Of a DNA stretch of 64,000 bases, positions 2,831 through 51,358 are shown one piece after another (the first letter of the stretch is position 1; every line of letters starts with the position of its first letter). The DNA is from Candidatus Woesearchaeota archaeon. Its GTDB lineage: Archaea > Nanobdellota > Nanobdellia > Pacearchaeales > GW2011-AR1. The stretch is from assembly GCA_964467035.1 (NCBI GenBank), contig CAYXNX010000004.1:89-64088 (forward strand), read 5' to 3'. Under the pieces are notes generated by a model. It was not told the origin of the DNA, ran no database searches, and saw nothing but the letters and a program-made list of their open reading frames with translations. Both the position numbers and the translations under genes were made by a program.

Positions 2831-5182
2831 TCTTTTTTGACTAGTTGGTTTTGTTGGTTGGTAAGAAAAACTAGTATACTTTTTTTTGGGTGTCAGGGTT
2901 TTTTGAGGTGGAGATTTTGGAGGGGTTGGCGGATTTGAGGGGGTTAAAGATTGAGAACTTGAAGAAATATTGCGAGATTCATTATCTTTTTTAACACTTA
3001 AATAAACTAAATACCCAATAATTGCAATTAAGACAATTATAATTAAAATAACTAAAACAGCAATAAGGGGTTTACTTATATCTTTAATTTCTGTGGGGCT
3101 ACATCCTAATTTGTCTTCTTGTAATTCAACCCAATCATTATTGGTACATTCAAATGTTTTGTTTCCTTGACATTTTAATTCACCTTCATTACAAGTAGTA
3201 TCAGGAACTGTTTGGTTTAAAGTTTGGTTTTTAGTTTGGTTTTGAGTTTGGTTTTGAGTTTGGTTTTGGTCTGGGGCAAAAACACATTCTCCACTATAAC
3301 AAGTATAATTCTGTTTACATGTATGCAGTGTAGAATTTATTTCATTTCCTGAGCAAAAATATTCTCTTAATTGACTTCCTTCACAAGTATCTTTTGTTTC
3401 ATTATGAATTCTACCATCTACCAAATAAGTTATTGTTCCTCGTATGCTATAATTTTTCCCCCCATCATCTTCTGAGCAGGATTTTTCAGGAGTTCCTTGA
3501 CATTCTCCTTCACTACATCCTTCAGGACAATAGTATTCCCTAAAAGAGGGGGAATCTCTAATGTCACACATTGATTCATTTAAAGTTGTAGAATTTATAC
3601 AAGTATCATTCACAGCAATCCATGGTTCATTGTCCAAATCTAAAGTATAATTTATGTATCCTTTTTCATAAGCGCCTAATGTTCCTGAAGGGTTAGCATT
3701 TGTTCCTTTGGGTCCGCTATCTGTATCAATACATTTTGGGTCTGTTGAAGTTTGTTCGACACAATTTCCATCTTTACAAATATCATCACATTCTTCAATT
3801 TCAATATAATTATCTGAGGCAGAACATTTAACTTTAAAATAGATTTCATTATTGGAGTTGTCAATATCTTCTTCATGATGACAAAAATTGTCAAAAGTAT
3901 CATGATTACAATAAGGATAAATATCAATTAGTCCTGAACCAGTCCCATCATAATTATTATATAAGCGGTAAAATCCAGAATTTTTTGAGGAGTCATTATA
4001 AACTAAAAATAAATCAGATGAATCAAAAAATCCCATTGAAGGTTGTTTTTTATTTGGGTGAGGTAAATCTTCATAACTTTCATTAAAATTATTTGATATA
4101 TCTCTCAAAATTGGTGTCCCACCATCTCCTGTTCCATCAAAGTTCATTAATTTGTGACTCCCCTCAGATTCAACCCAAATGTGAATTCCTGATTTTTCTA
4201 ATCCTTTTTCTTGAGGAAGATATTCGTTTTTGGAAAAATTCAATAAAACATTTAAGTCATCTTCATTAACTGATCCATCACCATTTAAATCATACTTTGA
4301 ATAAGTTCCTCCTACCTTAGAACCATATTCATATATTAATTTACTAGTATCATTGTGTGAGCCAGATGTATTAAGTTCTAAATTTGTGCTAGGAACAGAA
4401 TACTCAAAATTTCCATATATTAAAGATTCTTTACCTCCTCCAAAATTATCATAAGAATAAACAAGTTTAGGTTCGCCATCAACAATCCCTGAATTATGAA
4501 CATATTCTTCATCATCATCTCCTTTTAATTTTCTTATTATTAAATCTCCACCAGAATTGAAAAGCCAAATTTCTCCTTCAGCAATTCCTGTAAAAGTTCC
4601 TGCAACTGGTTTGAAAGAATCTTCATTTATTTCGCTAAAACTAGATTTATAATCTGAAGTTACATTTTGAGCATCATATTTTCGAGAAGGATTGAATCTA
4701 TAAACATCTCCACTTTCGTACCAAACTTCAATAAAAGTTTCTATGTCATCACCATTGATAATTGGATAAGAATATAAAAATTTAATTTTCTCTTCAGGTA
4801 AATTATAATATTCAGCGTAACTTTCTTGTTTAAAAGTTAGAGAATCCTCTTCAGAGTTTAAAGTTGAAGAGTATATATTTTCATCGGAAAATAAAGCATA
4901 TCTTATCGTTGCAAAATCAGATGTTCTCCCATAAGCTCCAATTCCTTCATAGGGTATATCATCTAAGCGAAGTTTCTTCCAACTTTCTTGGCTATCAATT
5001 TGTTGAAAATTAATGATTCTGGGCAAGGTTTCATTCAAACCAGAAGGTGGACTTAGCGAAACAGGTTTTTCAATATTTGAAACAAAAAATAAAATTCCGA
5101 ATGCAAATACTAATAAAAATGCTAAAGGTAAAGCAGTTTTTTTTGCTAGTTTTTTGTAGTATTTCTTATCACTCTTTCTCAT
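2807..5182 (-). CDS. membrane-anchored surface protein (dockerin-like repeat, Cys-rich modules, N-glycosylation sequon tract)
   Basis: 791 aa. N-terminal TM anchor, DLNGDGSVNEDDLNVLLN, several Cys-rich modules, a QNQTQNQTQNQTKNQTLNQT tract, a C-terminal TM helix and a Pro-rich tail. Confidence 0.6.
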   Translation of the reverse strand: MRKSDKKYYKKLAKKTALPLAFLLVFAFGILFFVSNIEKPVSLSPPSGLNETLPRIINFQQIDSQESWKKLRLDDIPYEGIGAYGRTSDFATIRYALFSDENIYSSTLNSEEDSLTFKQESYAEYYNLPEEKIKFLYSYPIINGDDIETFIEVWYESGDVYRFNPSRKYDAQNVTSDYKSSFSEINEDSFKPVAGTFTGIAEGEIWLFNSGGDLIIRKLKGDDDEEYVHNSGIVDGEPKLVYSYDNFGGGKESLIYGNFEYSVPSTNLELNTSGSHNDTSKLIYEYGSKVGGTYSKYDLNGDGSVNEDDLNVLLNFSKNEYLPQEKGLEKSGIHIWVESEGSHKLMNFDGTGDGGTPILRDISNNFNESYEDLPHPNKKQPSMGFFDSSDLFLVYNDSSKNSGFYRLYNNYDGTGSGLIDIYPYCNHDTFDNFCHHEEDIDNSNNEIYFKVKCSASDNYIEIEECDDICKDGNCVEQTSTDPKCIDTDSGPKGTNANPSGTLGAYEKGYINYTLDLDNEPWIAVNDTCINSTTLNESMCDIRDSPSFREYYCPEGCSEGECQGTPEKSCSEDDGGKNYSIRGTITYLVDGRIHNETKDTCEGSQLREYFCSGNEINSTLHTCKQNYTCYSGECVFAPDQNQTQNQTQNQTKNQTLNQTVPDTTCNEGELKCQGNKTFECTNNDWVELQEDKLGCSPTEIKDISKPLIAVLVILIIIVLIAIIGYLVYLSVKKDNESRNISSSSQSLTPSNPPTPPKSPPQKTLTPKKKYTSFSYQPTKPTSQKRLRKIPRN
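3210..3269. repeat. 5 x 12-bp tandem repeat (gtttggtttNNa) encoding (Q/K/L)NQT sequons on the minus strand
   Basis: Read directly; lies inside CDS 2807..5182. Confidence 0.85.
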
Positions 5183-5856: not shown

Positions 5857-5992
5857 GATTAAAATGTAAAAAAGGATTTAATAGAAAATTGGGGAAAAAT
5901 CCAAGCAATACATTCGAAAGCAAATCTTTTTTACATGGAAAAATAATTTGGACTTCCATAAATAGAACAACATTCTGAGTAATATTTCGTAT

Positions 5993-6136
5993 AACATCGA
6001 AATTTAACGAAGTCGCCGAAGGCGGTTTGGAAAACCGAAGTACAATAAGGTTTCCGTTAAATTCCTGTTATGTCTCCCGACGACTGAAAGGAGGAGAGCG
6101 CAGCGTGGTCGACCGAAGGGAGAAGCGCAGCGTCCC
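5993..6136 (+). repeat. G+C-rich modular junction element E1 (AACATCG left module, CTGTTAT core at 6065-6071, RM-1 right module)
   Basis: Positions 6060-6108 are identical over 49 nt to 32013-32061. The left part parallels 30515-30589. Hairpins cgcc-gaa-ggcg and aaaacc..ggtttc. Confidence 0.75.
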
Positions 6137-6142
6137 TTTAAG

Positions 6143-6376
6143 TTACGAGCCAGCTTTTTGTTTCCTTATTAAAGAATGTATTCCCCAACCTATGATAAAA
6201 CCTATACTTCCGAATAATACGAATAAAAATATTATTGGTAAAAAATCTGTATTGAATTTAGAAAAATCTATGTGTGTATTAGGTAGCCACAACAATGAAG
6301 ATATTCCAATTAATGCTCCAAACCAACTCCCCCACATTTTGAATGGATTGTATAATTTTTTTATTTTATCTGTCAT
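6143..6376 (-). CDS. small membrane protein (cassette cargo)
   Basis: 77 aa with two hydrophobic helices. Flanked by the perfect 11-bp inverted repeat ttacgagccag (6143-6153) / ctggctcgtaa (6425-6435). Confidence 0.45.
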   Translation of the reverse strand: MTDKIKKLYNPFKMWGSWFGALIGISSLLWLPNTHIDFSKFNTDFLPIIFLFVLFGSIGFIIGWGIHSLIRKQKAGS

Positions 6377-6424
6377 ATTATTTTATTGAATTAAATTAAT
6401 ATAAATAACTTTTTATCTTAAAAA

Positions 6425-6590
6425 CTGGCTCGTAATTTCACTTAACGTTCGCGTGTATGAGAAGTTTGCGAAGTAAATTTGGGAAAATTGCGAGCCGAGG
6501 CATTTTTTCTTTTATCCCTTGTTATATGAGGGTGAGCTTGCGAAAGCGCGTAGCGTCTCAGAGGATTTTTTTGTAGAAAAAACCGCAGAG
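6425..6590 (+). repeat. G+C-rich junction element E2 (degenerate core CTTGTTAT at 6518-6525)
   Basis: GNRA-like hairpins (ttgcgaagtaa, cttgcgaaagcg). The right part (gggtgag..gcgtagcg) resembles 33971-34010. Confidence 0.5.
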
Positions 6591-7884: not shown

Positions 7885-7934
7885 AATTATTAGGGGTATT
7901 GTGAACATTATAAAAGTTTGCCAGTAACCCAATC

Positions 7935-8037
7935 TCTTATAATCGCTGTTAGTTTCTCTGAGGATTGATTTTTAATGCAATATGTCCGAGCGGAATGAAA
8001 TGGAGCGAAGGAGTTGCCCCGAAGCGCGCATTATGGT
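7935..8037 (+). repeat. G+C-rich junction element E3 (core CTGTTAG at 7946-7952, RM-2 right module)
   Basis: The right part aligns with 30597-30650 (gagga-ttgattttta-R-tgcaa..atgYccgaRg). gaatgaaatggagcga also occurs at 33811-33826. Confidence 0.55.
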
Positions 8038-29443: not shown

Positions 29444-29469
29444 GTGCACAGAAAATTGATTTTATTATA

Positions 29470-29540
29470 TTAAGCCCTGTTAAATCCGCCGACGAACGAA
29501 GTGAGGAGAATGACATACTCCCTGGCCTAAAGGCAGGGGT
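29470..29540 (+). repeat. junction element E4 (core CTGTTAA at 29477-29483, RM-1-like cgacgaacgaagtgaggaga, bulged hairpin 29518-29539)
   Basis: aagccCTGTTAAATCC is shared with 33626-33641. The RM-1 motif is shared with 34978-34997. Confidence 0.6.
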
Positions 29541-30170
29541 ATCTCTTTAAGAAGTTACAAAGTTGTTTGTCTTAAATCTTTAAATTCAAAATTCCATTCT
29601 TCTTGGGAATACTTAATGTATTGTTCAATTACTTCAGCAGTTACTGCTCCAACACTTCGGAAAAATTTTCCAGGGCTCCATAAATGAGGTTTAACTGTTC
29701 CGTCTCTACTAAAAAAAGCATACCATTGAGTACACTTTTTGAAAAAAATTCTCGCGCTTCCTCCTTTCAAAAATTGTAAAGTCATACTCACCGAAATTGT
29801 CGACGGAACTTGTGCAAAACAATGCACATGGTCTGGCATAACTTTTAACTCAATAATTTCTATTTTATGTTTTTTTGCAACTTGTTTGATTGCATCTTCA
29901 CAAATTTTCCGAGGGTATTCTTTTTTGAAAACCGATACATTGTATTTTGGTCTCCAAACAAAGTGATAAGCACTTTGTCCTATTGCGTGTTTTGTATGTT
30001 TTAATTCCATTTTTCTCCATAGCTTTCGCGCACGAAAGCAAACATTTATTTAGTTTGAGAAAGTTTCAACTAGGCAATTTTATGGCGGTTTAACCGCCTT
30101 CTTTCTCGTAATAAATAAGTTTTTTAGAAATAAATACATTTGCACCTCGTCTTAAAAGACGAGGCAGCAG
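29500..30170 (-). mobile_element. IS200-like element (tnpA only); ends approximate
   Basis: Y1 transposase ORF flanked by subterminal hairpins: 29518-29539 downstream, and 30022-30039, 30084-30098 and 30145-30164 upstream. No tnpB/iscB. Confidence 0.5.
29555..30010 (-). CDS. tnpA: IS200/IS605-family Y1 (HUH) transposase TnpA
   Basis: 151 aa. YHFVWRPKY start, HUH motif PDHVHCF, LKGGSARIF, LWSPGKFFRSVG and the catalytic-Tyr region VIEQYIKYS. Confidence 0.85.
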   Translation of the reverse strand: MELKHTKHAIGQSAYHFVWRPKYNVSVFKKEYPRKICEDAIKQVAKKHKIEIIELKVMPDHVHCFAQVPSTISVSMTLQFLKGGSARIFFKKCTQWYAFFSRDGTVKPHLWSPGKFFRSVGAVTAEVIEQYIKYSQEEWNFEFKDLRQTTL

Positions 30171-30241
30171 ATATATTGTAGCGCAGCGGAGTGCGGAGTG
30201 AAACGGAGCAAGTTTTTCCTTTGGCGTTTTGAATACAAAAT

Positions 30242-30249
30242 TTTAAATA
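30242..30249 (+). promoter_or_regulatory. TATA-box-like element about 30 nt upstream of ATG 30272 (leaderless layout)
   Basis: tttaaata. The same spacing is seen at four other cassette genes. Confidence 0.4.
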
Positions 30250-30271
30250 TAACTTAGAATTCTTTAATACC

Positions 30272-30487
30272 ATGGCATTATTAACAGAAACTTCTGCAAA
30301 ATTATTGGAGGAAATGTGCGAAGATAGAACGGGAAAATCATTACAAGAATTTTCAGAACAAGATTTTCCAAGAGATTACTCTCCCGAATTAGAACAGAAA
30401 AGAGCAGAAGTTTCAAAATACAGATTAACCAAACCATCTACAACGCCATGGTATAATCCTCAAAGAATTCTAAGACATTTTAGATAG
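30272..30487 (+). CDS. hypothetical small protein
   Basis: 71-aa ORF with a TATA at -30. Terminates in TAG. No recognisable family. Confidence 0.4.
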   Translation: MALLTETSAKLLEEMCEDRTGKSLQEFSEQDFPRDYSPELEQKRAEVSKYRLTKPSTTPWYNPQRILRHFR

Positions 30488-30514
30488 TTTATAGCCAAAT
30501 GAAAAATTTCGTTG

Positions 30515-30660
30515 AACATCGCGATTAAACGAAGTCGCCTAAGGCGATTTGGGTGGAGAAACCTGCAAGGTTTCGGAACCGTTAAATTCCTGTTAGTTTC
30601 GTCCGAATATTTAGAGGACTTGATTTTTAGTGCAACGATGCCGAAGGCAAAAAATCAAAG
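30515..30660 (+). repeat. junction element E5 (AACATCG left module, core CTGTTAG at 30590-30596, RM-2 right module with hairpin 30620-30660)
   Basis: The left part parallels E1 and 33533-33630. The hairpin is repeated in inverse orientation at 56190-56229. Confidence 0.7.
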
Positions 30661-30796
30661 TTTTTGGATTACTGATAAATTTCGACCGCAGAGAGTATAT
30701 ATGTCCAAAGGAAGAGAGAGTAGGGTGTCTTGTTTTGGTTCTTTTCTAAAAGAACATTTAGGGTCGTCATTTGTCATTTTCTGGGCTACCAAAAGA

Positions 30797-30804
30797 TTTA
30801 TATA
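30797..30804 (+). promoter_or_regulatory. TATA-box-like element about 30 nt upstream of ATG 30829
   Basis: tttatata. Overlaps the left inverted-repeat arm at 30788-30800. Confidence 0.4.
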
Positions 30805-30828
30805 GTAATTGTATTATTGATTATACAT

Positions 30829-31419
30829 ATGTATAAAAAGATAAGATTTACAGAAAATACCTTGCAAGTATTATCTTTATTTACGAACGATTTTAATAGA
30901 GAATATTATATTCGAGAAGTTGAAAAATTACTAAAAATTAGTCCGAGAACATCACAGCTTATTCTTGAGGATTTGGAAAATAAAGGAGTGATAGAATCAA
31001 AAACTAAGGGCAAGATTAAAACATTTAAATTAAATCCAAGCGAGTTCACTAAAAGGTATCTTGCTTTCGTAGAACAATATAAAGCGATTGCATTTTTAGA
31101 AAAGAAACTTTTGATTAAAGAAATAATAGAAAAGATCATTCCCAATATTAAAGGAATCGGCATAATTTTTGGAAGTTATGTTAAAGGATTAGAAAAAGAA
31201 GGTTCTGATTTGGATATTTTTATTGTAGGAAGTTATAACAATGACGAAATAAAAAAAATTTCAAAAAATTTAGGTATAGAGATAAGTATTAAATGTTATC
31301 CTCTGAAAACATTTGAGAAGAATCTAAAAAAAGATATCCTTCTGAAAGAAGTTTTAAAAAATCATGTAGTTTTTCTAAATGTAGAACAATTTATACAGAA
31401 GGTCTTCAAAAATGGATAA
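30829..31419 (+). CDS. nucleotidyltransferase (MNT-like) with N-terminal winged helix
   Basis: GSYVKGLEKEGSDLDIFIVGS matches the minimal nucleotidyltransferase signature. N-terminal wHTH-like segment. Overlaps the HEPN gene by 8 nt. Confidence 0.75.
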   Translation: MYKKIRFTENTLQVLSLFTNDFNREYYIREVEKLLKISPRTSQLILEDLENKGVIESKTKGKIKTFKLNPSEFTKRYLAFVEQYKAIAFLEKKLLIKEIIEKIIPNIKGIGIIFGSYVKGLEKEGSDLDIFIVGSYNNDEIKKISKNLGIEISIKCYPLKTFEKNLKKDILLKEVLKNHVVFLNVEQFIQKVFKNG

Positions 31420-31894
31420 AATAAAATGGTGTGCTGAGAAAAAAGGAGGATTAAGTTTAGTTGAGCCAAACTCTGATCTCGCAAATGCTTATATCAAGAA
31501 AGCGGAAGAAGCACTTGAATCAATGAGGGTAAACATAATTAAAGATTGGAAAATCTCAACAGCATACTATACAATCTATTTCTCATTATACGCTGTCTTG
31601 ATGAAATTGGGTATAAAATGTAAGATTCATTCTTGTACTATTGAATTTGCAAAAAGATTCCTCGAAGAATATTTTGAAGAAGCAGAGTTAAATTTTACTG
31701 AGGACTCATTAAAAGCTAGAGTCGATTCCCAATATTATATAGACCGAACTGTTCCAGATGAGCAATATAACAAAATGATTCAAAAAGCTCCTGAATTTCT
31801 AGTTAAGTGCAAATCTGTTATTATCAAATTAAACGAGAAAAAGGTTAATGAGATAAGAGATAAATTTCAAAAGGAAATAAGCAAGAGGAGATAA
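31412..31894 (+). CDS. HEPN-domain protein (partner of the MNT)
   Basis: 160 aa, helical. N-terminal AYIKKAEEALESMR is typical of HEPN. Translationally coupled to the upstream nucleotidyltransferase. Confidence 0.7.
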   Translation: MDKIKWCAEKKGGLSLVEPNSDLANAYIKKAEEALESMRVNIIKDWKISTAYYTIYFSLYAVLMKLGIKCKIHSCTIEFAKRFLEEYFEEAELNFTEDSLKARVDSQYYIDRTVPDEQYNKMIQKAPEFLVKCKSVIIKLNEKKVNEIRDKFQKEISKRR

Positions 31895-31956
31895 TTAAAT
31901 GAATACTAAACAGATAATTAACAAGAAAGCTGAATATTGGAAAAAGTGATTACCAG

Positions 31957-32141
31957 TAAATCTTTTGGTTTCAAATTATATTTCTATTTAGCCCGAATTC
32001 TGAATTAGACATAATTCCTGTTATGTCTCCCGACGACTGAAAGGAGGAGAGCGCAGCGTGGCAAAATCCGAAGGATTTTGAGTTCAGAATTCGGGCGTAT
32101 TTGATATTAACTTCAGAGTAGTAAAAGAACCGAAAGATTTA
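31957..32141 (+). repeat. junction element E6: nested-stem structure with core CTGTTAT at 32018-32024
   Basis: Stems 31957-31970/32128-32141 (13 of 14), 31991-32004/32083-32096 (14/14), 32007-32014/32021-32028 (8/8) and 32062-32069/32073-32080 (8/8). Confidence 0.8.
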
Positions 32142-32145
32142 TAAA
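32138..32145 (+). promoter_or_regulatory. TATA-box-like element 30 nt upstream of ATG 32168
   Basis: tttataaa. Overlaps the inverted-repeat arm at 32128-32141. Confidence 0.4.
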
Positions 32146-32167
32146 GATTAGACTTATTCTAAAATAC

Positions 32168-32461
32168 ATGAAAAAAGAAATAATCCCAAGGTATAATATT
32201 GAAGTTCCAACACTAGAGGAACAGCTAAAAGAAGAAGGATTCAAAAGAGTAGCTGAACTTGAAGCAAGAGCTGATGGAAGAGTGGAACTTCCAATTGATT
32301 TAGTCCCAAATACAAAGGGCGGAAAAAATATTTTTGGTAAACCTTACGCGGAATTGAGAATTGTAAATGCGAGAGAAGTTAGCCCATTTGAAAAGAGCGA
32401 TAGAAAATATTTTGTTTACCAAAAAATAGAAGAAAGCCCATATGTATTTGAACAAGAATAA
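32168..32461 (+). CDS. hypothetical protein (cassette cargo)
   Basis: 97-aa ORF with a TATA at -30. Bracketed by perfect inverted repeats. Confidence 0.5.
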   Translation: MKKEIIPRYNIEVPTLEEQLKEEGFKRVAELEARADGRVELPIDLVPNTKGGKNIFGKPYAELRIVNAREVSPFEKSDRKYFVYQKIEESPYVFEQE

Positions 32462-32600
32462 ATCTTTCGGTTTCTATCTTTTAGCCCGAATTCTGATTAG
32501 ACATAATCGCTGTTATACGCCCCGACGAGTGAAACGAGGAGAGCCTGCAAGGCGTGGTCGGAGCGAAGCGACGAAGAAGTGGTGTGAGTTTTCGTTAAAT
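32459..32600 (+). repeat. junction element E7 (core CTGTTAT at 32510-32516)
   Basis: The left part gcccgaattctga-ttagacataat equals the E6 left part. Positions 32539-32570 are identical over 32 nt to 33666-33697. Confidence 0.75.
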
Positions 32601-32603
32601 GAT

Positions 32604-33062
32604 TTAGAGTAGCCTTCGTTTTATTTTTATTAATAAAAAAGTTAATACTATATAAAAAAATCCGATGCAAATTATATAGTAATTTGGAAATGTTTTAAAA
32701 AAAAGAAAAAATCCAAAAGCGTAAGCTATTCCTAAAAAGATTCCTGAAGATGTCCTTAAAATATTATTGCCTTTGGATTTTTTAAAAGCAGATATTGACC
32801 AATCAATTAAAGCAAATATGGGGAAAAAAGCAATTACAAAATAATATAAATTTTTATTTGGTATTTGAAAAGTTAATAACACTATTCCTAAGAGAATTCC
32901 TAAATATACTCCAAGACAACGAGAACAAAAAGCAATTTGTTTATTTTTAATTTTAAATAAATAGCATTTATAATAATCTTCTTTTTTATGATGAGAAAGA
33001 ATATACTTAGAGACTTCACTTAATCCCCTTTTTAATTCTTTTAGTAAATAATTTAGTCCCAT
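32604..33062 (-). CDS. DUF2085-like membrane protein
   Basis: 152 aa with CSRCLGVYLG followed by 4 hydrophobic helices. Confidence 0.5.
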   Translation of the reverse strand: MGLNYLLKELKRGLSEVSKYILSHHKKEDYYKCYLFKIKNKQIAFCSRCLGVYLGILLGIVLLTFQIPNKNLYYFVIAFFPIFALIDWSISAFKKSKGNNILRTSSGIFLGIAYAFGFFLFFKTFPNYYIICIGFFYIVLTFLLIKIKRRLL

Positions 33063-33093
33063 ATTATTAACTAAATATAAGTAGAATAAAAAT

Positions 33094-33432
33094 TTATCCG
33101 TATTTTGCTTTAAATGCAGAATCGGTCATTGTTAAATAAATTATTCCTTCAATTAAACCAATTATTGCAGGAATGAAAGTCCAAAAAAAACACAAATACA
33201 AAATTCCCATTCCAATATCTTCTAAATAAAATTTGTGTGCACCGATTCCGCCAAGTAAAATTCCTAAAAGGCCTGCGGCAACTTTGTTTTTTTCCCTTCC
33301 AGAAAATGAATGATGACTTCTTTGTCTAACGCCACATTTTGGGCATATTTCTGCTTCTTTTTTTATAACTTCTCCACAAGAAGAGCAATAAGCTTCATCG
33401 GATTTTTTTTCTTTCTTGTCTTTTTGAACCAT
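33094..33432 (-). CDS. zinc-ribbon plus TM2-domain membrane protein
   Basis: CSSCG..x..CPKCG zinc ribbon, then AGLLGILLGGIGAHKFYL, which is typical of the TM2 domain. Confidence 0.7.
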   Translation of the reverse strand: MVQKDKKEKKSDEAYCSSCGEVIKKEAEICPKCGVRQRSHHSFSGREKNKVAAGLLGILLGGIGAHKFYLEDIGMGILYLCFFWTFIPAIIGLIEGIIYLTMTDSAFKAKYG

Positions 33433-33532
33433 ATTTATATTTAAAGAAATATAGAACTTTATAAACTTTTTTATTTTTTAAGGGGGCTACTCTTCTAACG
33501 AAGATGTCTAGAAAATTCACACTATTGCAATT

Positions 33533-33720
33533 AACATCGCGATTAAGGAAAGTTAATTTCTCCCGCGAGTGTAACGAGCTGGCTGAGAAATTAATTTAGG
33601 AAAATCCTGCAAGGATTTTCTGTTTAAGCCCTGTTAAATCCTCTGAACAAAATCTTTGATTTTGTGAGAGCCTGCAAGGCGTGGTCGGAGCGAAGCGGAG
33701 GGCGTAAGTCCCAATCTCCA
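33533..33720 (+). repeat. junction element E8 (AACATCG left module, core CTGTTAA at 33631-33637)
   Basis: Hairpins 33553-33562/33585-33594 (10 bp) and 33599-33620 (gaaaatcc-tgcaa-ggattttc). Shares a 32-nt block with E7. Confidence 0.7.
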
Positions 33721-33832
33721 TTATATTCTCAAACTTCCAAAAAATAGAATCTTTGATTCGTCATTTTTTGAGGATGTTTGGCGAGCATCTTTTCGATGCG
33801 AAGAGTCGCGAAATGAAATGGAGCGATTGGAT

Positions 33833-33960
33833 ATAAGGGGTGTTAATCGACCCCAAATACTTGGAGAGGCACGAGTTCTTCAGATATTTGTTGGAAGTGA
33901 GTTTTGCGTTGGGCGGGGTCTTGATAATAGAAGGGTTGTGGGGAGCAAAATTTTGATTAA
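33833..33960 (+). repeat. L repeat copy 1 (noncoding element of about 125 nt)
   Basis: About 90% identical by eye to 34840-34964 and 36134-36259. Indels between copies break any reading frame. Confidence 0.9.
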
Positions 33961-34015
33961 CCCCTGTTATACAGGGGGTGAGGAGCGTAGCGACGAAAGC
34001 GTAGCGTTCCATTGC
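33961..34015 (+). repeat. junction element E9 (core CTGTTAT at 33964-33970 inside the hairpin cccctgt-tat-acagggg)
   Basis: Followed by gtgaggagcgtagcgacgaaagcgtagcg, a gcgtagcg..cgaaag..gcgtagcg hairpin-like tract. Confidence 0.6.
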
Positions 34016-34031
34016 GTCAAGAAATTGGGCA

Positions 34032-34775
34032 TTACTTCTTCTTAAACTTGAACAAAATAAAAGTTGGCAAAGTTGTTGTTAATCTATATTTTTCAGAATC
34101 ATATTTTTTAGATATTTTAGTTGGCTCAGCATCTTTATAATCGATTAATTCAAATCCATTATTTATTCCTGCTTTAATCAGTGTTTCATAGGTAAAATTA
34201 CAAAGTTCCACTTTTCCTAAACTTCCTAAATCATTTGGTTTTGGGGTTTCATCAAAATAATTGCCAAAAATTATTCTTTTTCTATAAGATTGTTTTTTTA
34301 CACCAATCATGTGTTCCTTAGTTTGATTGATTAGATTAAAAATTGGGTGGCCTGTTGAAAAACAAAAAATCCCTTTTTTCTTTAAAACACGATTTACTTC
34401 TTTGAATAATTTGTTAATGTCTTTGATGTAATGTATTGCTAAACTTGAATAAACAATATCAAAAGTTGAATCTTCATGTTTTAACTTTTTACTCATATCT
34501 CCAACATAGAAATTAGAATCAGGAATTTTTTGTTGATTTGCAAATTTGACTAATTCTTTACTAATGTCAAATCCAACCAATTTTTTATAATTTTGCTTAG
34601 ATAATTTTTGAGCATGATCCCCAAAACCACAACCCATATCTAGAATAACTTTGTTTTTTACATCACCAATGATTTTAATTAAAGCAGGAACTTCAATATC
34701 TCGATTATAATCAAATCGCGTTTTATCTTTTCTTCGCTCTAAATAATGCTGAGCCAATTTATCATATTCTGCCAT
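34032..34775 (-). CDS. class I SAM-dependent methyltransferase
   Basis: VILDMGCGFGDH (motif I), DIVYSSLAIHY and KKGIFCFS motifs. Confidence 0.85.
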   Translation of the reverse strand: MAEYDKLAQHYLERRKDKTRFDYNRDIEVPALIKIIGDVKNKVILDMGCGFGDHAQKLSKQNYKKLVGFDISKELVKFANQQKIPDSNFYVGDMSKKLKHEDSTFDIVYSSLAIHYIKDINKLFKEVNRVLKKKGIFCFSTGHPIFNLINQTKEHMIGVKKQSYRKRIIFGNYFDETPKPNDLGSLGKVELCNFTYETLIKAGINNGFELIDYKDAEPTKISKKYDSEKYRLTTTLPTFILFKFKKK

Positions 34776-34839
34776 ATATATAGACTACTTTGCCAACAAT
34801 ATAAATCTTTTTGTTCTGAGCCCAATTTCTTGATTTCGT

Positions 34840-34964
34840 ATAAGGGTGTTAATCGACCCCAAATACTTGGAGAGGCACGAGTTTTTCAGATATTTGTTTG
34901 AGTGAGTTTTGCATTGGGGGTGTCTTGACAATAGAAGGGTTGTGGGAAGCAAAATTTTGATTAA
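34840..34964 (+). repeat. L repeat copy 2
   Basis: See copy 1. Immediately followed by tcgCTGTTAT (core at 34968-34974). Confidence 0.9.
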
Positions 34965-35042
34965 TCGCTGTTATCTGTCCCGAACGAAGTGAGGAGAGTG
35001 CAACGTGCCCGAGCCGAAGGCGAAAGAGTTTTTGAAAATGCC
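34965..35042 (+). repeat. junction element E10 (core plus RM-1-like cgaacgaagtgaggagag; gagccgaaggc hairpin)
   Basis: Read directly. Ends in the inverted-repeat arm at 35029-35042. Confidence 0.6.
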
Positions 35043-35105
35043 GTTCATCAAGGACGAAGTCCCATTAGTTTAAAGAATCAAGGTGTAAACTCAAGAAGCA
35101 CAATG

Positions 35106-35113
35106 TTTATAAT
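35106..35113 (+). promoter_or_regulatory. TATA-box-like element 30 nt upstream of ATG 35136
   Basis: tttataat. Confidence 0.4.
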
Positions 35114-35135
35114 AATTCATAATTTCCACTAATTT

Positions 35136-35801
35136 ATGGCTTCAAATTTAGAGAATCTTCATCAGTGGGCATCTTCAAAATATGAGAATTATCTATCTAT
35201 GATAGCTATTGGTTCAATTGCGGTGGGAGATGCTTGGATTGAGGGAAGAAGCGATCATGACATTCTTCTTGTTTTTGAAGAATATCCTCAAAGCATTGCT
35301 TCAGATTTAGAAGGATATCTTCAAAATTCTGAATTTGATGAAACTTACCTATTCACACCATTACCAAAATCTGTGTTAATAGGCCCAAAAAATCATAGTC
35401 ATGATTTCTCAAACAAATTCAGAAGTAAGACTCTCTATGGAATTGATTTAATCCCTGAAGTTAAATTACCAACAGATGAAGTGATTAAATCATTGTATGA
35501 AAGTGGTTTAGAGAGTGTTACGAGAAGAATGTCGCATAGAATTGCCCACGCTTCTTTATGGACTGATGAAAAAGCCAGAAATGTTTTTTGGAAATTATTC
35601 AAGCATTCATTTATGAATTTAGCAATAAGAGCTTATGCAACATCTGGAAATTATCCAAGAAAAAGGGAAGATGTTGTAAAACATTATGATTCTGATGAAT
35701 TAAAAGTCGTATTAGAAACATTGAATACAATTAATGAACAACCAAGAGAAAATATTGTTTCTGCTGCGAAAGGATTGGTTGGCTATATTAAGCGACTTTG
35801 A
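35136..35801 (+). CDS. putative nucleotidyltransferase-fold protein
   Basis: GSIAVGDAWIEGRSDHDILLVF matches the G-S-x(9-11)-D-x-D nucleotidyltransferase pattern. The rest is helical. Confidence 0.5.
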   Translation: MASNLENLHQWASSKYENYLSMIAIGSIAVGDAWIEGRSDHDILLVFEEYPQSIASDLEGYLQNSEFDETYLFTPLPKSVLIGPKNHSHDFSNKFRSKTLYGIDLIPEVKLPTDEVIKSLYESGLESVTRRMSHRIAHASLWTDEKARNVFWKLFKHSFMNLAIRAYATSGNYPRKREDVVKHYDSDELKVVLETLNTINEQPRENIVSAAKGLVGYIKRL

Positions 35802-35821
35802 GTTTACCTCATTCTATTTTA

Positions 35822-35915
35822 GGCATTTTCAAAAATTGGATTTAATGCCTGTTATAATCTCCCGTTAGTGACGAGGGATAGCTGCAAGCGGTTTTTTGCG
35901 AAGCAAAAAAATCCT
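35822..35915 (+). repeat. junction element E11 (core CTGTTAT at 35849-35855)
   Basis: Hairpins gctgcaagc and ttttttgcgaagcaaaaaa. Begins with the inverted-repeat arm at 35822-35835. Confidence 0.6.
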
Positions 35916-35935
35916 GAAGAGTTGAATTTAGAAAC

Positions 35936-36082
35936 TTACTTCTTTTTTAATGAGAAGAAAGCGAAGAATGCAAAAAATCCGAAGAATCCGAAAAGCTCGT
36001 AATTTTGAGTAGGTATGCCTAGCAATCCTAATAATCCAAAGATACCAAAATATCCAGCTTTCCATTTATTATCATCTTTCAT
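35936..36082 (-). CDS. small hydrophobic protein (48 aa; below the ORF-track cutoff)
   Basis: My translation is MKDDNKWKAGYFGIFGLLGLLGIPTQNYELFGFFGFFAFFAFFSLKKK. Bracketed by the perfect 14-bp inverted repeat 35922-35935/36114-36127. Confidence 0.4.
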   Translation of the reverse strand: MKDDNKWKAGYFGIFGLLGLLGIPTQNYELFGFFGFFAFFAFFSLKKK

Positions 36083-36133
36083 AATATTTCTGAGGTTCTA
36101 TTTGTTTATTAAAGTTTCTAAATTCAATTGATT

Positions 36134-36259
36134 ATAAGGGGTGTTAATCGACTTCGAATACTTGGAGAGGCACGAGTTCTTCAGATATTTGTTTGAGTGA
36201 GTTTTGCATTGGGGGTGTCTTGACAATAGAGGGGTTGTGGGGAGCAAAATTTTGATTAA
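36134..36259 (+). repeat. L repeat copy 3 (adjacent to the recombinase gene; not followed by CTGTTA)
   Basis: Ends gattaaCAG, so TTAACAG (the reverse complement of CTGTTAA) sits at 36256-36262. Confidence 0.9.
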
Positions 36260-36304
36260 CAGACTTTTAACGAACTCAGTTAATATTTGATAGTTAAAAG
36301 TCTG
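36260..36304. repeat. perfect 12-bp inverted repeat cagacttttaac-N21-gttaaaagtctg upstream of the recombinase gene
   Basis: Arms at 36260-36271 and 36293-36304, read directly. Confidence 0.85.
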
Positions 36305-36377: not shown

Positions 36378-36394
36378 TAGTGTTTAGTGTTATA

Positions 36395-37234
36395 ATGGTT
36401 TATATTCCTTATGACTGGGAAACTTGTTTAAGGAGAAAATGTAAAAGATATAGGTATTCTGACAAAAATGTGAAAAATTATAGTTACTGGATTCAAAGAT
36501 TTTTGAAATGGAATGGGAAGGAATTGAAGTATATTTCAAAAAAAGATGTTAGTGCTTTTTTGCAAAAATTAGATAATCAAAATCTTTCAGGAAATACCTT
36601 AAATCAATGTCATATGACGCTTAAATTCTTATTTGAAGATGTTATGGATAAAAAGATGTAGATAAATATTAAGTATGCAAAAGTGCCTAAAAGAATTCAA
36701 AAAGTTTTGAAAAAAGAAGAAATAAAATTATTAATTAAAAACATTAAAAATTCTAAACACAAAATTATGATTGCTTTGATGTACTCAGCAGGTTTAAGAG
36801 TAAGTGAGTTAATTAATTTAAAAGTTGAAGATTTAGAATTAAAAAATAGATATGGATTTGTGAGAAATGGAAAGGAAGGAAAAGATAGATTATTTATTAT
36901 TTCTGAAAGACTGGCACCTGTTTTAAAACAAATTATTTTAGATAATAATTTGGGAAAAGAAGATTATTTATTTTTAAGTAGAAGAAATAAAAAATATAGT
37001 GTAAGAACAATACAGAAAATTGTTAAGGATGCAAGTAAAAAAGCTGGTCTTGATTTTAAAGAAATTCACCCACATACATTAAGACATAGTTTTGCAACTC
37101 ATTTAATTGAACAAGGAGATTGTGTTGGAGATGTGCAAGCAATGTTAGGACATAAATCTCAGGAAACTTCTTTAAACTATATCCATTCATCAGGGAAAAT
37201 GTTAAATATAAAAAGTCCTTTTGACAGATTATAA
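36395..37234 (+). pseudogene. Xer-like tyrosine recombinase interrupted by one in-frame TAG (36659-36661)
   Basis: The N-terminal SAM-like domain (36395-36658) and the catalytic domain (36662-37234) are in the same frame. Catalytic signature: R in GLRVSEL, HPHTLRH, LGH and Y in LNYIH. No IntI-type insertion. Confidence 0.75.
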
Positions 37235-51099: not shown

Positions 51100-51358
51100 G
51101 TAGACCAGACCGGCGCGTTAGCTCTGCGCCATTTGCAAGTGAGCTCTAGGCAGGTCGCAAGGGGGTAAGTGATTCTTTTTACAAAGAGTCTTTGCCTGGA
51201 CTGTGATATTTTGTCCTATTTGACCTTGCTCCTGCAAACCGGGTCAGACCTTGATCGGAGCAGCCCTAAACAGGAAACAAGGTGCTTATAGGGTAGCAAA
51301 ATTGAGAAAGGGTAGAGGTAGCTTTTTGTGGAAAGGAGAGCAAACCCCTGTGGTCTAC
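51100..51358 (+). ncRNA. probable SRP (7S) RNA
   Basis: G+C-rich noncoding island. The 5' GUAGACCA pairs with the 3' UGGUCUAC. Alu-like hairpin 51112-51130 has loop AGCUC complementary to GAGCU at 51141-51145. GGGUCAGACC..GGAGCAGCC (51241-51265) resembles the helix-8 motif GGUCAGGUCCGGAAGGAAGCAGCC. A T-rich tract follows. Confidence 0.65.

Follow-up and report, generated by a model that had tools for sequence, protein, structure and literature searches.

Cassette-specific inverted repeats in a XerA-linked gene array of a DPANN archaeon: candidate clamps of a folded single-strand recombination site

We analysed a stretch of 64,000 nt (the window) of contig CAYXNX010000004.1, assembly GCA_964467035.1, from Candidatus Woesearchaeota archaeon, a DPANN archaeon. 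The window contains an array of mostly single-gene cassettes upstream of a gene encoding a XerA-type tyrosine recombinase; the array ends about 120 nt before this gene. Most of the cassettes are enclosed by a perfect inverted repeat (IR) with its own sequence. These IRs are a real and widespread feature, a conclusion that we hold with high confidence. As to their role, the patterns described below incline us to the interpretation that they are the built-in clamp of a folded single-strand recombination site, in a logic resembling that of integron attC sites.

All nine IR pairs listed in an earlier note on this DNA proved to be perfect, and two of them are longer than first noted: the inner IR of cassette B has 15 bp and the IR of cassette G has 16 bp (Table 1). 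One more bracketing pair, absent from that list, surrounds orf71. The region 30500-36300 was compared with 300 dinucleotide-preserving shuffles, counting perfect IRs with a span of 100-1400 nt. There are 20 IRs of at least 11 bp (7.2 +/- 2.9 in shuffled sequences), 13 of at least 12 bp (2.0 +/- 1.4), 11 of at least 13 bp (0.57 +/- 0.75, maximum 4), and 6 of at least 14 bp (0.16, maximum 2), which excludes chance. The entire window has 30 perfect IRs of at least 13 bp; 12 of them fall in 30.25-36.13 kb, and the remainder consist mostly of A and T only. The mean local complementarity score is 28 for ends of the same cassette and 20.9 +/- 3.7 for ends of different cassettes. Nearly each cassette has its own arm sequence, in agreement with the earlier statement that these are not terminal inverted repeats (TIRs) of a single transposon family. 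The stronger statement that every cassette is bracketed applies to most of them: the DUF2085/TM2 unit has only nested pairs of 9-14 bp, while unit D and three junction elements of ~124 nt are empty units with short hairpins. Additional perfect IRs of 12-14 bp, approximately concentric with the bracketing ones, occur inside payloads (34121-34132/34746-34757, 34166-34178/34678-34690, 32632-32643/33464-33475, 32654-32667/33396-33409); those of the methyltransferase unit are situated in its coding sequence.

The archaeal dif site has imperfect inverted arms around a 6-bp spacer (PMC2958812). The sites of the array fit this definition of two ~11-bp inverted arms and a 6-bp spacer. Each is formed by a 10-nt left arm (L, ..nnnnnTAA), a 6-nt spacer (S) and a 10-nt right arm (R, TTAnnnnn..), that is, a 10-6-10 pattern ..TAA N6 TTA... 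All sites in the window have the same orientation, and the units follow each other head to tail. The CTGTTA motif previously considered to be a core is not a unit of its own; it is made of the end of the spacer and the start of the R arm. Sites were called with a position weight matrix (PWM) and arm variants by context-anchored search; loose regular expressions and near-match searches yielded mostly noise.

The structure of the canonical unit is seen best in the compact arrays of two related loci, L018 and L013: S, R, a GC-rich module of ~55 nt ending with AG, the upstream stem arm X' of 13-16 nt, the payload, the downstream stem arm X, and L. Cassettes B (with its outer IR), E, F and G of the window all obey this rule, because the 130-nt elements at the junctions are empty units with their own L arms. 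In cassette G, the AG precedes X', the arms form the 16-bp perfect IR, X abuts L, and L and R of this cassette can pair with each other (GATTATAA/TTATAATC). Thus the IRs do not lie just inside large junction elements, as had been thought; the right IR arm abuts the L arm with zero spacing. An anchored IR of 10 bp or more was found in 37 of 80 site-to-site intervals. The X-L offset is 0 in 33 of these 37 intervals, X' directly follows the AG in 33 of 37, and the median distance from the start of the spacer to X' is 70 nt. Non-cognate pairings produced IRs of at least 10 bp in 3 of 80 cases. The outer part of X' is rich in T and A (the outer 8 nt are 53% T and 27% A), and the payload-side end is 70% G+C.

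The three copies of the empty unit in the window are 91-94% identical. We considered this 130-nt repeat as an RNA gene or an intron remnant, and rejected both, as the repeat contains all parts of an empty unit, namely S, R, module, hairpin and L. Empty units were observed in other loci as well: tandem 111-nt units in L055, two units of 120 nt in L026, and one of 82 nt in L080, where the AG is followed by TTTTTCC, cgta, GGAAAAA and then L. The stems have 6-7 bp in the empty units, compared with a median of 13 bp in the loaded ones.

The boundary between units always falls between L and S, and the spacer stays with the R arm. Three different L arms precede GGGGTG-TTAATCGAC; TTCCTG-TTATGTCTCCC is found behind one L arm at 6062 and behind another at 32015; and the L arm ttttgattaa precedes three different S-R pairs, among them the chromosomal CAGACT-TTTAACGAAC. 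The chromosomal half-site CAGRCT-TTTAACGAA is retained in ~18-20 related loci, and the arm on its left is variable. The spacer and R arm of this half-site belong to a palindrome, and in 8 of 18 related loci they have a pairing partner that is 7 nt or longer. A cassette of L073 is duplicated within one array (113-1031 and 4070-4988) with 93% identity, and the identity spans S to L. Since S stays with R and the duplicate extends from S to L, strand exchange probably takes place between TAA and S on the plus strand. The spacers differ within one array (TTCCTG, TCGCTG, GCCCTG, GGGGTG, CAGACT). Unmatched spacers speak against normal two-strand exchange by a tyrosine recombinase, and we infer by analogy with integrons and the CTX phage that they favour exchange of a single strand pair, completed by replication.

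The same organisation was observed in 80 related GTDB loci and in a replicate set of 26 independent JGI metagenome loci. In the GTDB loci, a perfect IR of 13 bp or more encloses 61 of the 311 open reading frames (ORFs) within 7 kb upstream of the recombinase gene, and 3 of 508 downstream. The replicate gave 28 of 170 upstream and 0 of 204 downstream (p = 7e-11). The upstream PWM sites are located almost exclusively on the plus strand, 116 vs 4 in the GTDB loci and 62 vs 1 in the JGI loci. Loci L013, L081, L018 and L024 contain runs of 5-7 successive bracketed cassettes. By local alignment in related loci, cognate ends are clearly complementary in 52 of 79 units, and non-cognate ends in 8 of 78. 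At least 20 of 40 loci with at least 2 kb of upstream sequence hold two or more sites. Approximately 25 of the 80 GTDB contigs, and also many JGI contigs, stop 50-370 nt upstream of the recombinase gene, as would be expected of a repetitive, variable array in assemblies; DPANN assemblies seem to be interrupted systematically in this region. A search of metagenome contigs for close strain variants with a window-specific 22-mer gave no match, and viral contigs had no match to the module pattern and the proximal-site pattern. In a search of the literature, we did not come across any account of cassette arrays that are linked to XerA and have stems of this kind.

Where homologous arms differ, they mostly stay perfectly complementary. 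The compensatory change noticed earlier between cassettes A and B (ACCAAAAGATTTA/TAAATCTTTTGGT vs ACCGAAAGATTTA/TAAATCTTTCGGT) is indeed present, and three more such families were found in related genomes: L012/L055, with a paired change between TAAATTTGAAGTCC and TAAATTTGGAGTCC, L031/L041, and L063/L081, with two substitutions, both paired. A single uncompensated change was found, at the arm terminus, between L017 and the inner IR of window cassette B. Homologous methyltransferase payloads (~35% identity) in the window, L081, L013 and L018 are each enclosed in a different perfect IR; the complementary ends, whose absence from homologous cassettes would have spoken against the earlier proposal, are thus kept.

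The R arm at the 5' end of a cassette is complementary to the L arm at its own 3' end. At least five of seven variable positions are paired in own L:R combinations of 41% of cassettes; the same level is reached by 7.8% of arm pairs that adjoin at a junction and by 3.9% of randomly combined arms (p = 3e-11); in the JGI replicate, the value is 41% vs 4.8%. In 27 aligned junctions, chosen for a perfect X:X' stem but not for L:R, the 8-bp L:R helix is 94% paired, and 6 of its 8 pairs have double changes. The X:X' helix is extended by a conserved T-A pair and a T.G wobble, so that no unpaired base is left between the X:X' and L:R helices on the X-L strand.

The potential for folding is strongly biased towards one strand. 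L:R mismatches are G.T rather than A.C (63 vs 20; replicate 27 vs 8; the background ratio is ~1.6:1). The motif GCGN(N)AGC occurs in the arrays 137 times on the plus strand and 11 times on the minus strand (replicate 77 vs 15; window array 8 vs 1), whereas downstream controls have 59 vs 72. It is the consensus of extraordinarily stable DNA mini-hairpins (PMC13037366; for d(GNA) loops, PMC3201870). Motifs of the type xC-GNA-Gx' occur in the arrays 297 vs 69 times. Folds of the junction of each cassette with itself, simulated with DNA parameters for the predicted single-stranded circles, have a common cloverleaf form, which is closed by the X:X' stem and contains one or two hairpins of the module as well as an L:R hairpin whose loop holds S. 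The predicted fold of the top strand is more stable than that of the bottom strand in 25 of 27 junctions.

The arms are, judging by the following comparisons, a part of a reusable backbone and not of the gene, because the same arms flank unrelated genes. Loci L001 and L039 have a common inner IR (GAAGGCAGTGC) with its flanks and unrelated proteins, which led us to reject a link of arms to genes; L001 and L020 have a common outer IR and module, and different payloads. Cassettes A and B of the window have common arms and 3' flanks around unrelated genes, and in L017 a different gene lies in the backbone and outer IR of cassette B. In one backbone family, seen in L001 (~5003-5011 and 5894-5902), L020 and L039, the payload has a directly repeated G-rich motif, GGGYGGGG, on each side, in the interval that separates the outer from the inner IR arm. 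The L073 duplicates have 0 mismatches per 123 positions in the backbone and arms, compared with 59 per 787 (7.5%) in the payload. Finally, species with different payloads and with recombinases of only ~55-60% identity have 5' modules that are 89-97% identical (97% for 30589-30666 vs L012; 89% for 32012-32148 vs L017), so the backbones seem to be passed on horizontally.

The recombinase has 2135 homologs of ~279 aa, and the named ones come mostly from metagenome-assembled genomes (MAGs) of Nano-, Pace- and Woesearchaeota. By sequence and structure matching it appears to be a XerA-type enzyme, and it is not an integron integrase, because both its best structural and its best NCBIfam matches are XerA, and IntI4 aligns only N-terminally. 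The closest solved structures are archaeal XerA 4a8e and 5hxy, matched over the full length. A protein 76% identical to the window recombinase (P0001) aligns with 4a8e at residues 22-266, and with IntI4 (2a3v) in the N-terminal part only, residues 18-178. The best NCBIfam model is NF040815 (recomb_XerA_Arch), with 206.7 bits, slightly below the curated cutoff of 220; the integron integrase model TIGR02249 gives 181 bits in two stretches at a cutoff of 265. The Pfam catalytic domain is matched without an insertion; integrases of the IntI clade have an additional domain of their own around patch III. In the window, the gene has an in-frame TAG codon at 36659-36661, where all 23 aligned homologs have Trp (KKMWIDIKY). 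This could be a nonsense mutation, so that the array is perhaps frozen in this genome, a sequencing error, or recoding.

The mechanism towards which we lean would operate as follows. The plus strand, which is the sense strand of xerA, would fold as single-stranded DNA, cassette by cassette. The X:X' stem of 13-16 bp, with the GC clamp on the payload side, would zip together the two ends of a cassette across 0.2-3 kb; the own L:R helix would form a duplex XerA-binding arm stacked on this stem; and the module would collapse into very stable GNA-loop mini-hairpins. In the folded array each junction would then consist of two duplex arms around a single-stranded spacer, and so only the top strand could be cleaved and exchanged. 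XerA would exchange this strand between TAA and S, with no need for spacer homology, and the product would be completed by replication, as for integron attC sites and the CTX phage. The unique sequence of each stem would ensure self-pairing without mispairing with neighbouring cassettes; empty units would need a stem of 6-7 bp only; and the palindrome next to the recombinase gene (Table 1) may supply the same pairing for the chromosomal half-site. The excised product would be a single-stranded circle, with the exchange point at the tip of the L-S-R hairpin and the cassette stem at its base. Hence the apical position proposed earlier for the conserved site applies to the excised circle; in the folded integrated array the gene would form the loop of a panhandle, with the exchange point at its base. 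Likewise, the attC-like logic put forward in the earlier note is independently supported by the L:R covariation, the mini-hairpins and wobbles on one strand, and the exchange fixed between L and S, but the recombinase is of the XerA type and not IntI.

Several observations weigh against this interpretation. Since the same arms flank unrelated genes, the IRs could be a legacy of a backbone hairpin and not a product of selection. Among loaded units, the length of the stem does not correlate with the length of the payload, and approximately one third of units have no clear stem. Only L:R provides an unbiased test of covariation in the aligned junctions. The mini-hairpin loop motifs are also compatible with RNA folding of the same strand. 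The folded-strand mechanism, with its single-stranded DNA, circles and recombination, rests wholly on sequence patterns. Folding of an integrated cassette demands 0.3-3 kb of exposed single strand, which has no known source in these archaea, and the L:R hairpin of an excised circle provides one duplex arm only, which is a difficulty for integration. Finally, the recombinase of the window itself carries a nonsense codon.

The strongest alternative is that the IRs are a by-product of cassette building. Genes would have been inserted at the tip of the empty-unit hairpin, splitting arms with no role in recombination, or else they would have been caught between two TIR-bearing copies of the backbone and excised by XerA. 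Empty units with X'-loop-X hairpins do exist, identical arms and backbones surround unrelated genes, the nested IRs look like successive captures, and at one window junction (J2) the arms are complementary across the junction. However, such junction-spanning complementarity is rare (3 of 80). The perfect stems of 13-16 bp in loaded units, compared with 6-7 bp in empty ones, are left unaccounted for, as are the compensated substitutions, the zero divergence of arms between cassettes whose payloads differ by 7.5%, the L:R covariation and the strand asymmetry. Furthermore, there is no consistent association with a transposase, the diversity of the arms is too great for a single one, and no target-site duplications were seen. 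We consider this explanation, in its two versions taken together, unlikely but worth keeping in mind. It is compatible with the folded single-strand site, as it may describe the origin of the cassettes rather than the function of the arms.

Another possibility is that the structures act in RNA. A long plus-strand transcript of the array would form a helix (R:L and X':X) around each cassette, serving RNA processing, stabilisation or circularisation, and archaeal rRNAs provide a parallel, since they are flanked by processing stems. The one-strand fold, its G.U-compatible wobbles and GNRA-like loops agree with this, and the fold is on the same strand as the recombinase gene. On the other hand, no Rfam family matches the array at gathering thresholds (there is only noise at E up to 5), which also led us to reject a known RNA family, and there is no bulge-helix-bulge motif. 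The payload genes are on both strands and have their own TATA boxes. In cassettes E, F and G the upstream arm is outside the transcript of the gene, being upstream of its TATA box, and for the same reason 5'-3' pairing of arms within mRNA was rejected. The paired arms are the recombinase-binding arms of a DNA site with a fixed exchange point, and the GCGNAGC loop is the classic mini-hairpin of single-stranded DNA. An RNA-level role thus seems rather improbable.

The possibility that the arms are transcription insulators or protein-binding boxes, their T-rich outer halves acting as archaeal oligo-T terminators against read-in from both sides, has little to recommend it. The composition of the outer 8 nt of X' agrees with it, and the arms enclose the promoter together with the gene. 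However, terminators need only runs of T, and not an exact, cassette-specific complementarity of 13-16 bp with a GC clamp; unique sequences are unfit as a common protein-binding site; and the compensatory changes and L:R covariation are again unaccounted for. Lastly, AT-rich low-complexity IRs do occur elsewhere in the window, but chance matches in AT-rich DNA or assembly artefacts have a negligible probability given the observed excess (11 vs 0.57), the positions fixed relative to the sites, and the repetition of the pattern in more than 100 independent assemblies.

Some further identities were considered and rejected. Miniature inverted-repeat transposable elements or TIR transposons do not fit, as the arms differ in nearly every cassette, and the outer flanks are the AG at the module end and the TT of the L arm rather than duplications. 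An origin from the bacterial candidate phyla radiation, or a classic integron, does not agree with the named recombinase homologs, which are mostly from DPANN, or with the absent IntI insertion. Identity as an IS200/IS605 element was dismissed, as the single IS200-like TnpA is in one window unit; TnpA was absent from the gene lists of the few related loci inspected, with no systematic check made.

The closest known system is the integron. Here too, an array of mostly single-gene cassettes lies beside a tyrosine recombinase gene, and the payloads are mostly of unknown function or toxin-antitoxin-like; the conserved chromosomal half-site resembles attI. As in attC, site structure is conserved and sequence is not, the pairing is intrastrand and strand-specific, and the exchange would involve one strand, following ..AA, without spacer homology, implying replicative resolution. 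However, the recombinase is of the XerA type without the IntI insertion. The attC site is a local imperfect hairpin of ~60-140 nt situated 3' of the gene, with the exchange between G and TT in R', whereas here the arms span the gene, which lies inside them at the position of the attC variable terminal loop; in integrons the gene is outside. The conserved TAA/TTA pair is at the exchange end of a 10-6-10 dif-like site, the stems are perfect, without extrahelical bases, and each site has a GC-rich mini-hairpin module. Integron cassettes are promoterless, have one orientation and depend on Pc, whereas the cassettes considered here have their own promoters and both orientations. The array is thus an integron-like, Xer-driven platform that is set apart from integrons by its integrase, site anatomy and cassette expression. 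Archaeal integrons reported to date carry IntI and attC of the canonical type (PMC9668308).

A second group of relatives comprises elements that exploit Xer recombination. As in integrative mobile elements exploiting Xer (IMEX), and in the CTX phage with its attP(+) site and XerCD, a housekeeping-type Xer enzyme and a dif-like site are used, and integration is in tandem at one chromosomal site. The units lack a recombinase gene; at the xerA-proximal site they are situated between directly oriented dif-like sites, and the duplicated unit is bounded by sites. In CTX, as would be the case here, the site is a folded single strand, and one strand pair is exchanged without full spacer homology and resolved by replication. 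The differences are that our units are single-gene cassettes of 0.1-3 kb and not phages or genomic islands, that the host is an archaeon with XerA, that the site adjoins xerA, and that a cassette-specific clamp stem extends across the whole payload. The pdif modules of Acinetobacter plasmids are also small gene modules bounded by Xer sites, but pdif sites alternate in orientation, whereas here nearly all sites are direct; the module-specific stems and the 5' structured module have no counterpart there. The strand-biased circularizing integrative elements (SEs) of Vibrio are tyrosine-recombinase elements with a circle formed from one specific strand; they are described as large, with several dedicated recombinases, and without cassette arrays or folded dif-like sites (PMC9345347). 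Finally, the dif of Thermococcales (Cortez et al. 2010, PMC2958812) is likewise a XerA site with imperfect inverted arms and a 6-bp spacer, reported with flanking inverted repeats and an AT-rich conserved sequence. It is one chromosomal site at the terminus, away from xerA and without cassettes, whereas the arrays have many sites per locus, adjoining xerA. In a Xer/dif system a single site at the replication terminus serves to resolve chromosome dimers.

Table 1. Features of the window. IR, inverted repeat; S, spacer; L and R, left and right arms of a dif-like site; X' and X, upstream and downstream stem arms.
Feature	Position	Strand	Details
Distal unit	6052-6451	+	site ttccgttaaa TTCCTG ttatgtctcc 6052-6077, module, X' 6143-6153, small payload, X 6425-6435, L tttcacttaa 6436-6445
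Dif-like site	29464-29489	+	attatattaa GCCCTG ttaaatccgc
Unit with Y1 transposase and orf71	29474-30586	+	transposase 29555-30010 (-); orf71 30272-30487, in IR 30253-30265/30462-30474
Dif-like site	30577-30602	+	aaccgttaaa TTCCTG ttagtttcgt
Cassette A	30587-32014	+	MNT 30829-31419, HEPN 31412-31894; IR 30788-30800/31957-31969
Cassette A, 3' end	31991-32004		second X-type arm, abuts L 32005-32014
Dif-like site	32005-32030	+	ttagacataa TTCCTG ttatgtctcc
Cassette B	32015-32506	+	orf97 32168-32461; outer IR 32083-32096/32484-32496 (canonical), abuts L ttagacataa 32497-32506
Cassette B, inner IR	32128-32142/32458-32472
Dif-like site	32497-32522	+	ttagacataa TCGCTG ttatacgccc
Cassette C	32507-33627	+	DUF2085 32604-33062 (-), TM2/zinc-ribbon 33094-33432 (-) (Pfam); X and L set apart by ~125-nt 3' extension
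Cassette C, nested IRs			32606-32614/33485-33493 (9 bp), 32632-32643/33464-33475 (12 bp), 32654-32667/33396-33409 (14 bp)
Dif-like site	33618-33643	+	ttctgtttaa GCCCTG ttaaatcctc
Unit D, without ORF	33628-33836	+	imperfect local hairpin CAAAAAATAGAATC-ttt-GATTCGTCATTTTTTG; terminal L arm ttggatataa
Empty unit, first copy	33837-33960	+
Dif-like site	33951-33976	+	ttttgattaa CCCCTG ttatacaggg
Cassette E	33961-34843	+	S CCCCTG, R ttatacaggg, module, X' 34017-34030, payload, X 34820-34833, L tttcgtataa 34834-34843; 14-bp perfect IR
Cassette E, payload	34032-34775	-	S-adenosylmethionine (SAM) methyltransferase (Pfam)
Empty unit, second copy	34844-34964	+
Dif-like site	34955-34980	+	ttttgattaa TCGCTG ttatctgtcc
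Cassette F	34965-35845	+	S TCGCTG, R ttatctgtcc, module, X' 35029-35042, 221-aa ORF 35136-35801, X 35822-35835, L ttggatttaa 35836-35845
Cassette F, inner IR	35085-35094/35798-35807
Dif-like site	35836-35861	+	ttggatttaa TGCCTG ttataatctc
Cassette G	35846-36137	+	S TGCCTG, R ttataatctc, module, X' 35922-35937, 48-aa ORF 35936-36082 (-), X 36112-36127, L ttgattataa 36128-36137
Empty unit next to recombinase	36138-36259	+	GGGGTG, ttaatcgact, module, TTTTGC, 37-nt loop, GCAAAA, L ttttgattaa
Recombinase-proximal site (attI-like)	36250-36275	+	variable L ttttgattaa, spacer CAGACT, chromosomal R tttaacgaac
Palindrome	36260-36304		CAGACTTTTAAC (36260-36271)/GTTAAAAGTCTG (36293-36304), 12 bp; intrastrand partner for chromosomal spacer and R arm
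XerA-type tyrosine recombinase gene	36380-37234	+	Phage_int_SAM_4 and Phage_integrase (Pfam)

The payloads of the window array are MNT and HEPN, the orphan orf97, DUF2085 and TM2, a SAM methyltransferase, an orphan 221-aa protein and a 48-aa membrane peptide. They are encoded on both strands, and a box AAAGnTTTATAWA is present ~30 nt upstream of each ATG; from what is known of archaeal promoters, it likely represents a BRE/TATA promoter (BRE, transcription factor B recognition element) with a near-leaderless mRNA. One unit contains an IS200/IS605-family Y1 transposase with small GC-rich hairpins on both sides, and the presence of a single-strand transposase within a putative single-strand recombination array may be no coincidence. 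The L arm of the site at 30577-30602 resembles the complement of the chromosomal R arm, and may be the original left arm of the site.

At the distal end of the array, the region 7933-8027 contains a site and a module with an X'-like arm (TTGCCCCGAAGCGCGC, 8012-8027) for which the window offers no partner. Beyond this region lie ~21 kb with giant ORFs of 4635 aa and 1421 aa (8133-29443), and the next site is found only at 29464. A large insertion or rearrangement at ~8-29 kb may have divided the array. The 21-kb stretch 7943-29473 was also considered as one giant cassette, and this was rejected given the partnerless X'-like arm. A palindromic motif AACATCGCGATTAA is repeated in long 3' extensions (~30519-30535, ~33533-33547 and ~5995-6010 of the window, and also in L081); it resembles a further type of dif-like site, with another spacer. 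The GC content of the window is ~30%, and the cumulative GC skew rises monotonically over it, with no switch at the array. A match to Rfam Bacteria_small_SRP at 51207-51305, just at the threshold (40.2 bits vs 40), in an otherwise archaeal genome, is probably the conserved domain of the archaeal signal recognition particle (SRP) RNA.

Whether these arrays constitute a gene-capture platform of DPANN archaea (Woese-, Pace-, Nano- and Aenigmatarchaeota), apparently independent of integrons, with XerA in the role of IntI, with folded-DNA cassette recombination having arisen by convergence, and with each cassette having a four-part single-strand site comprising the L:R helix, the mini-hairpin module, the unique gene-spanning clamp of 13-16 bp and the reusable empty backbone, is in our judgement evenly balanced. 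If this holds, ultra-small symbiotic archaea, whose gene gain is poorly understood, would have a second cassette platform with another recombinase, XerA, and another site architecture. The identity of modules between species with diverged recombinases points to active horizontal spread of backbones. The platform would also account for the frequent breaks of DPANN MAG assemblies just upstream of xerA. Hundreds of unrelated stems with a common geometry form a natural data set on how tyrosine recombinases read folded DNA. The origin of integrons from Xer-like systems would become experimentally approachable, and the arrays could be a living model of the origin of IntI.

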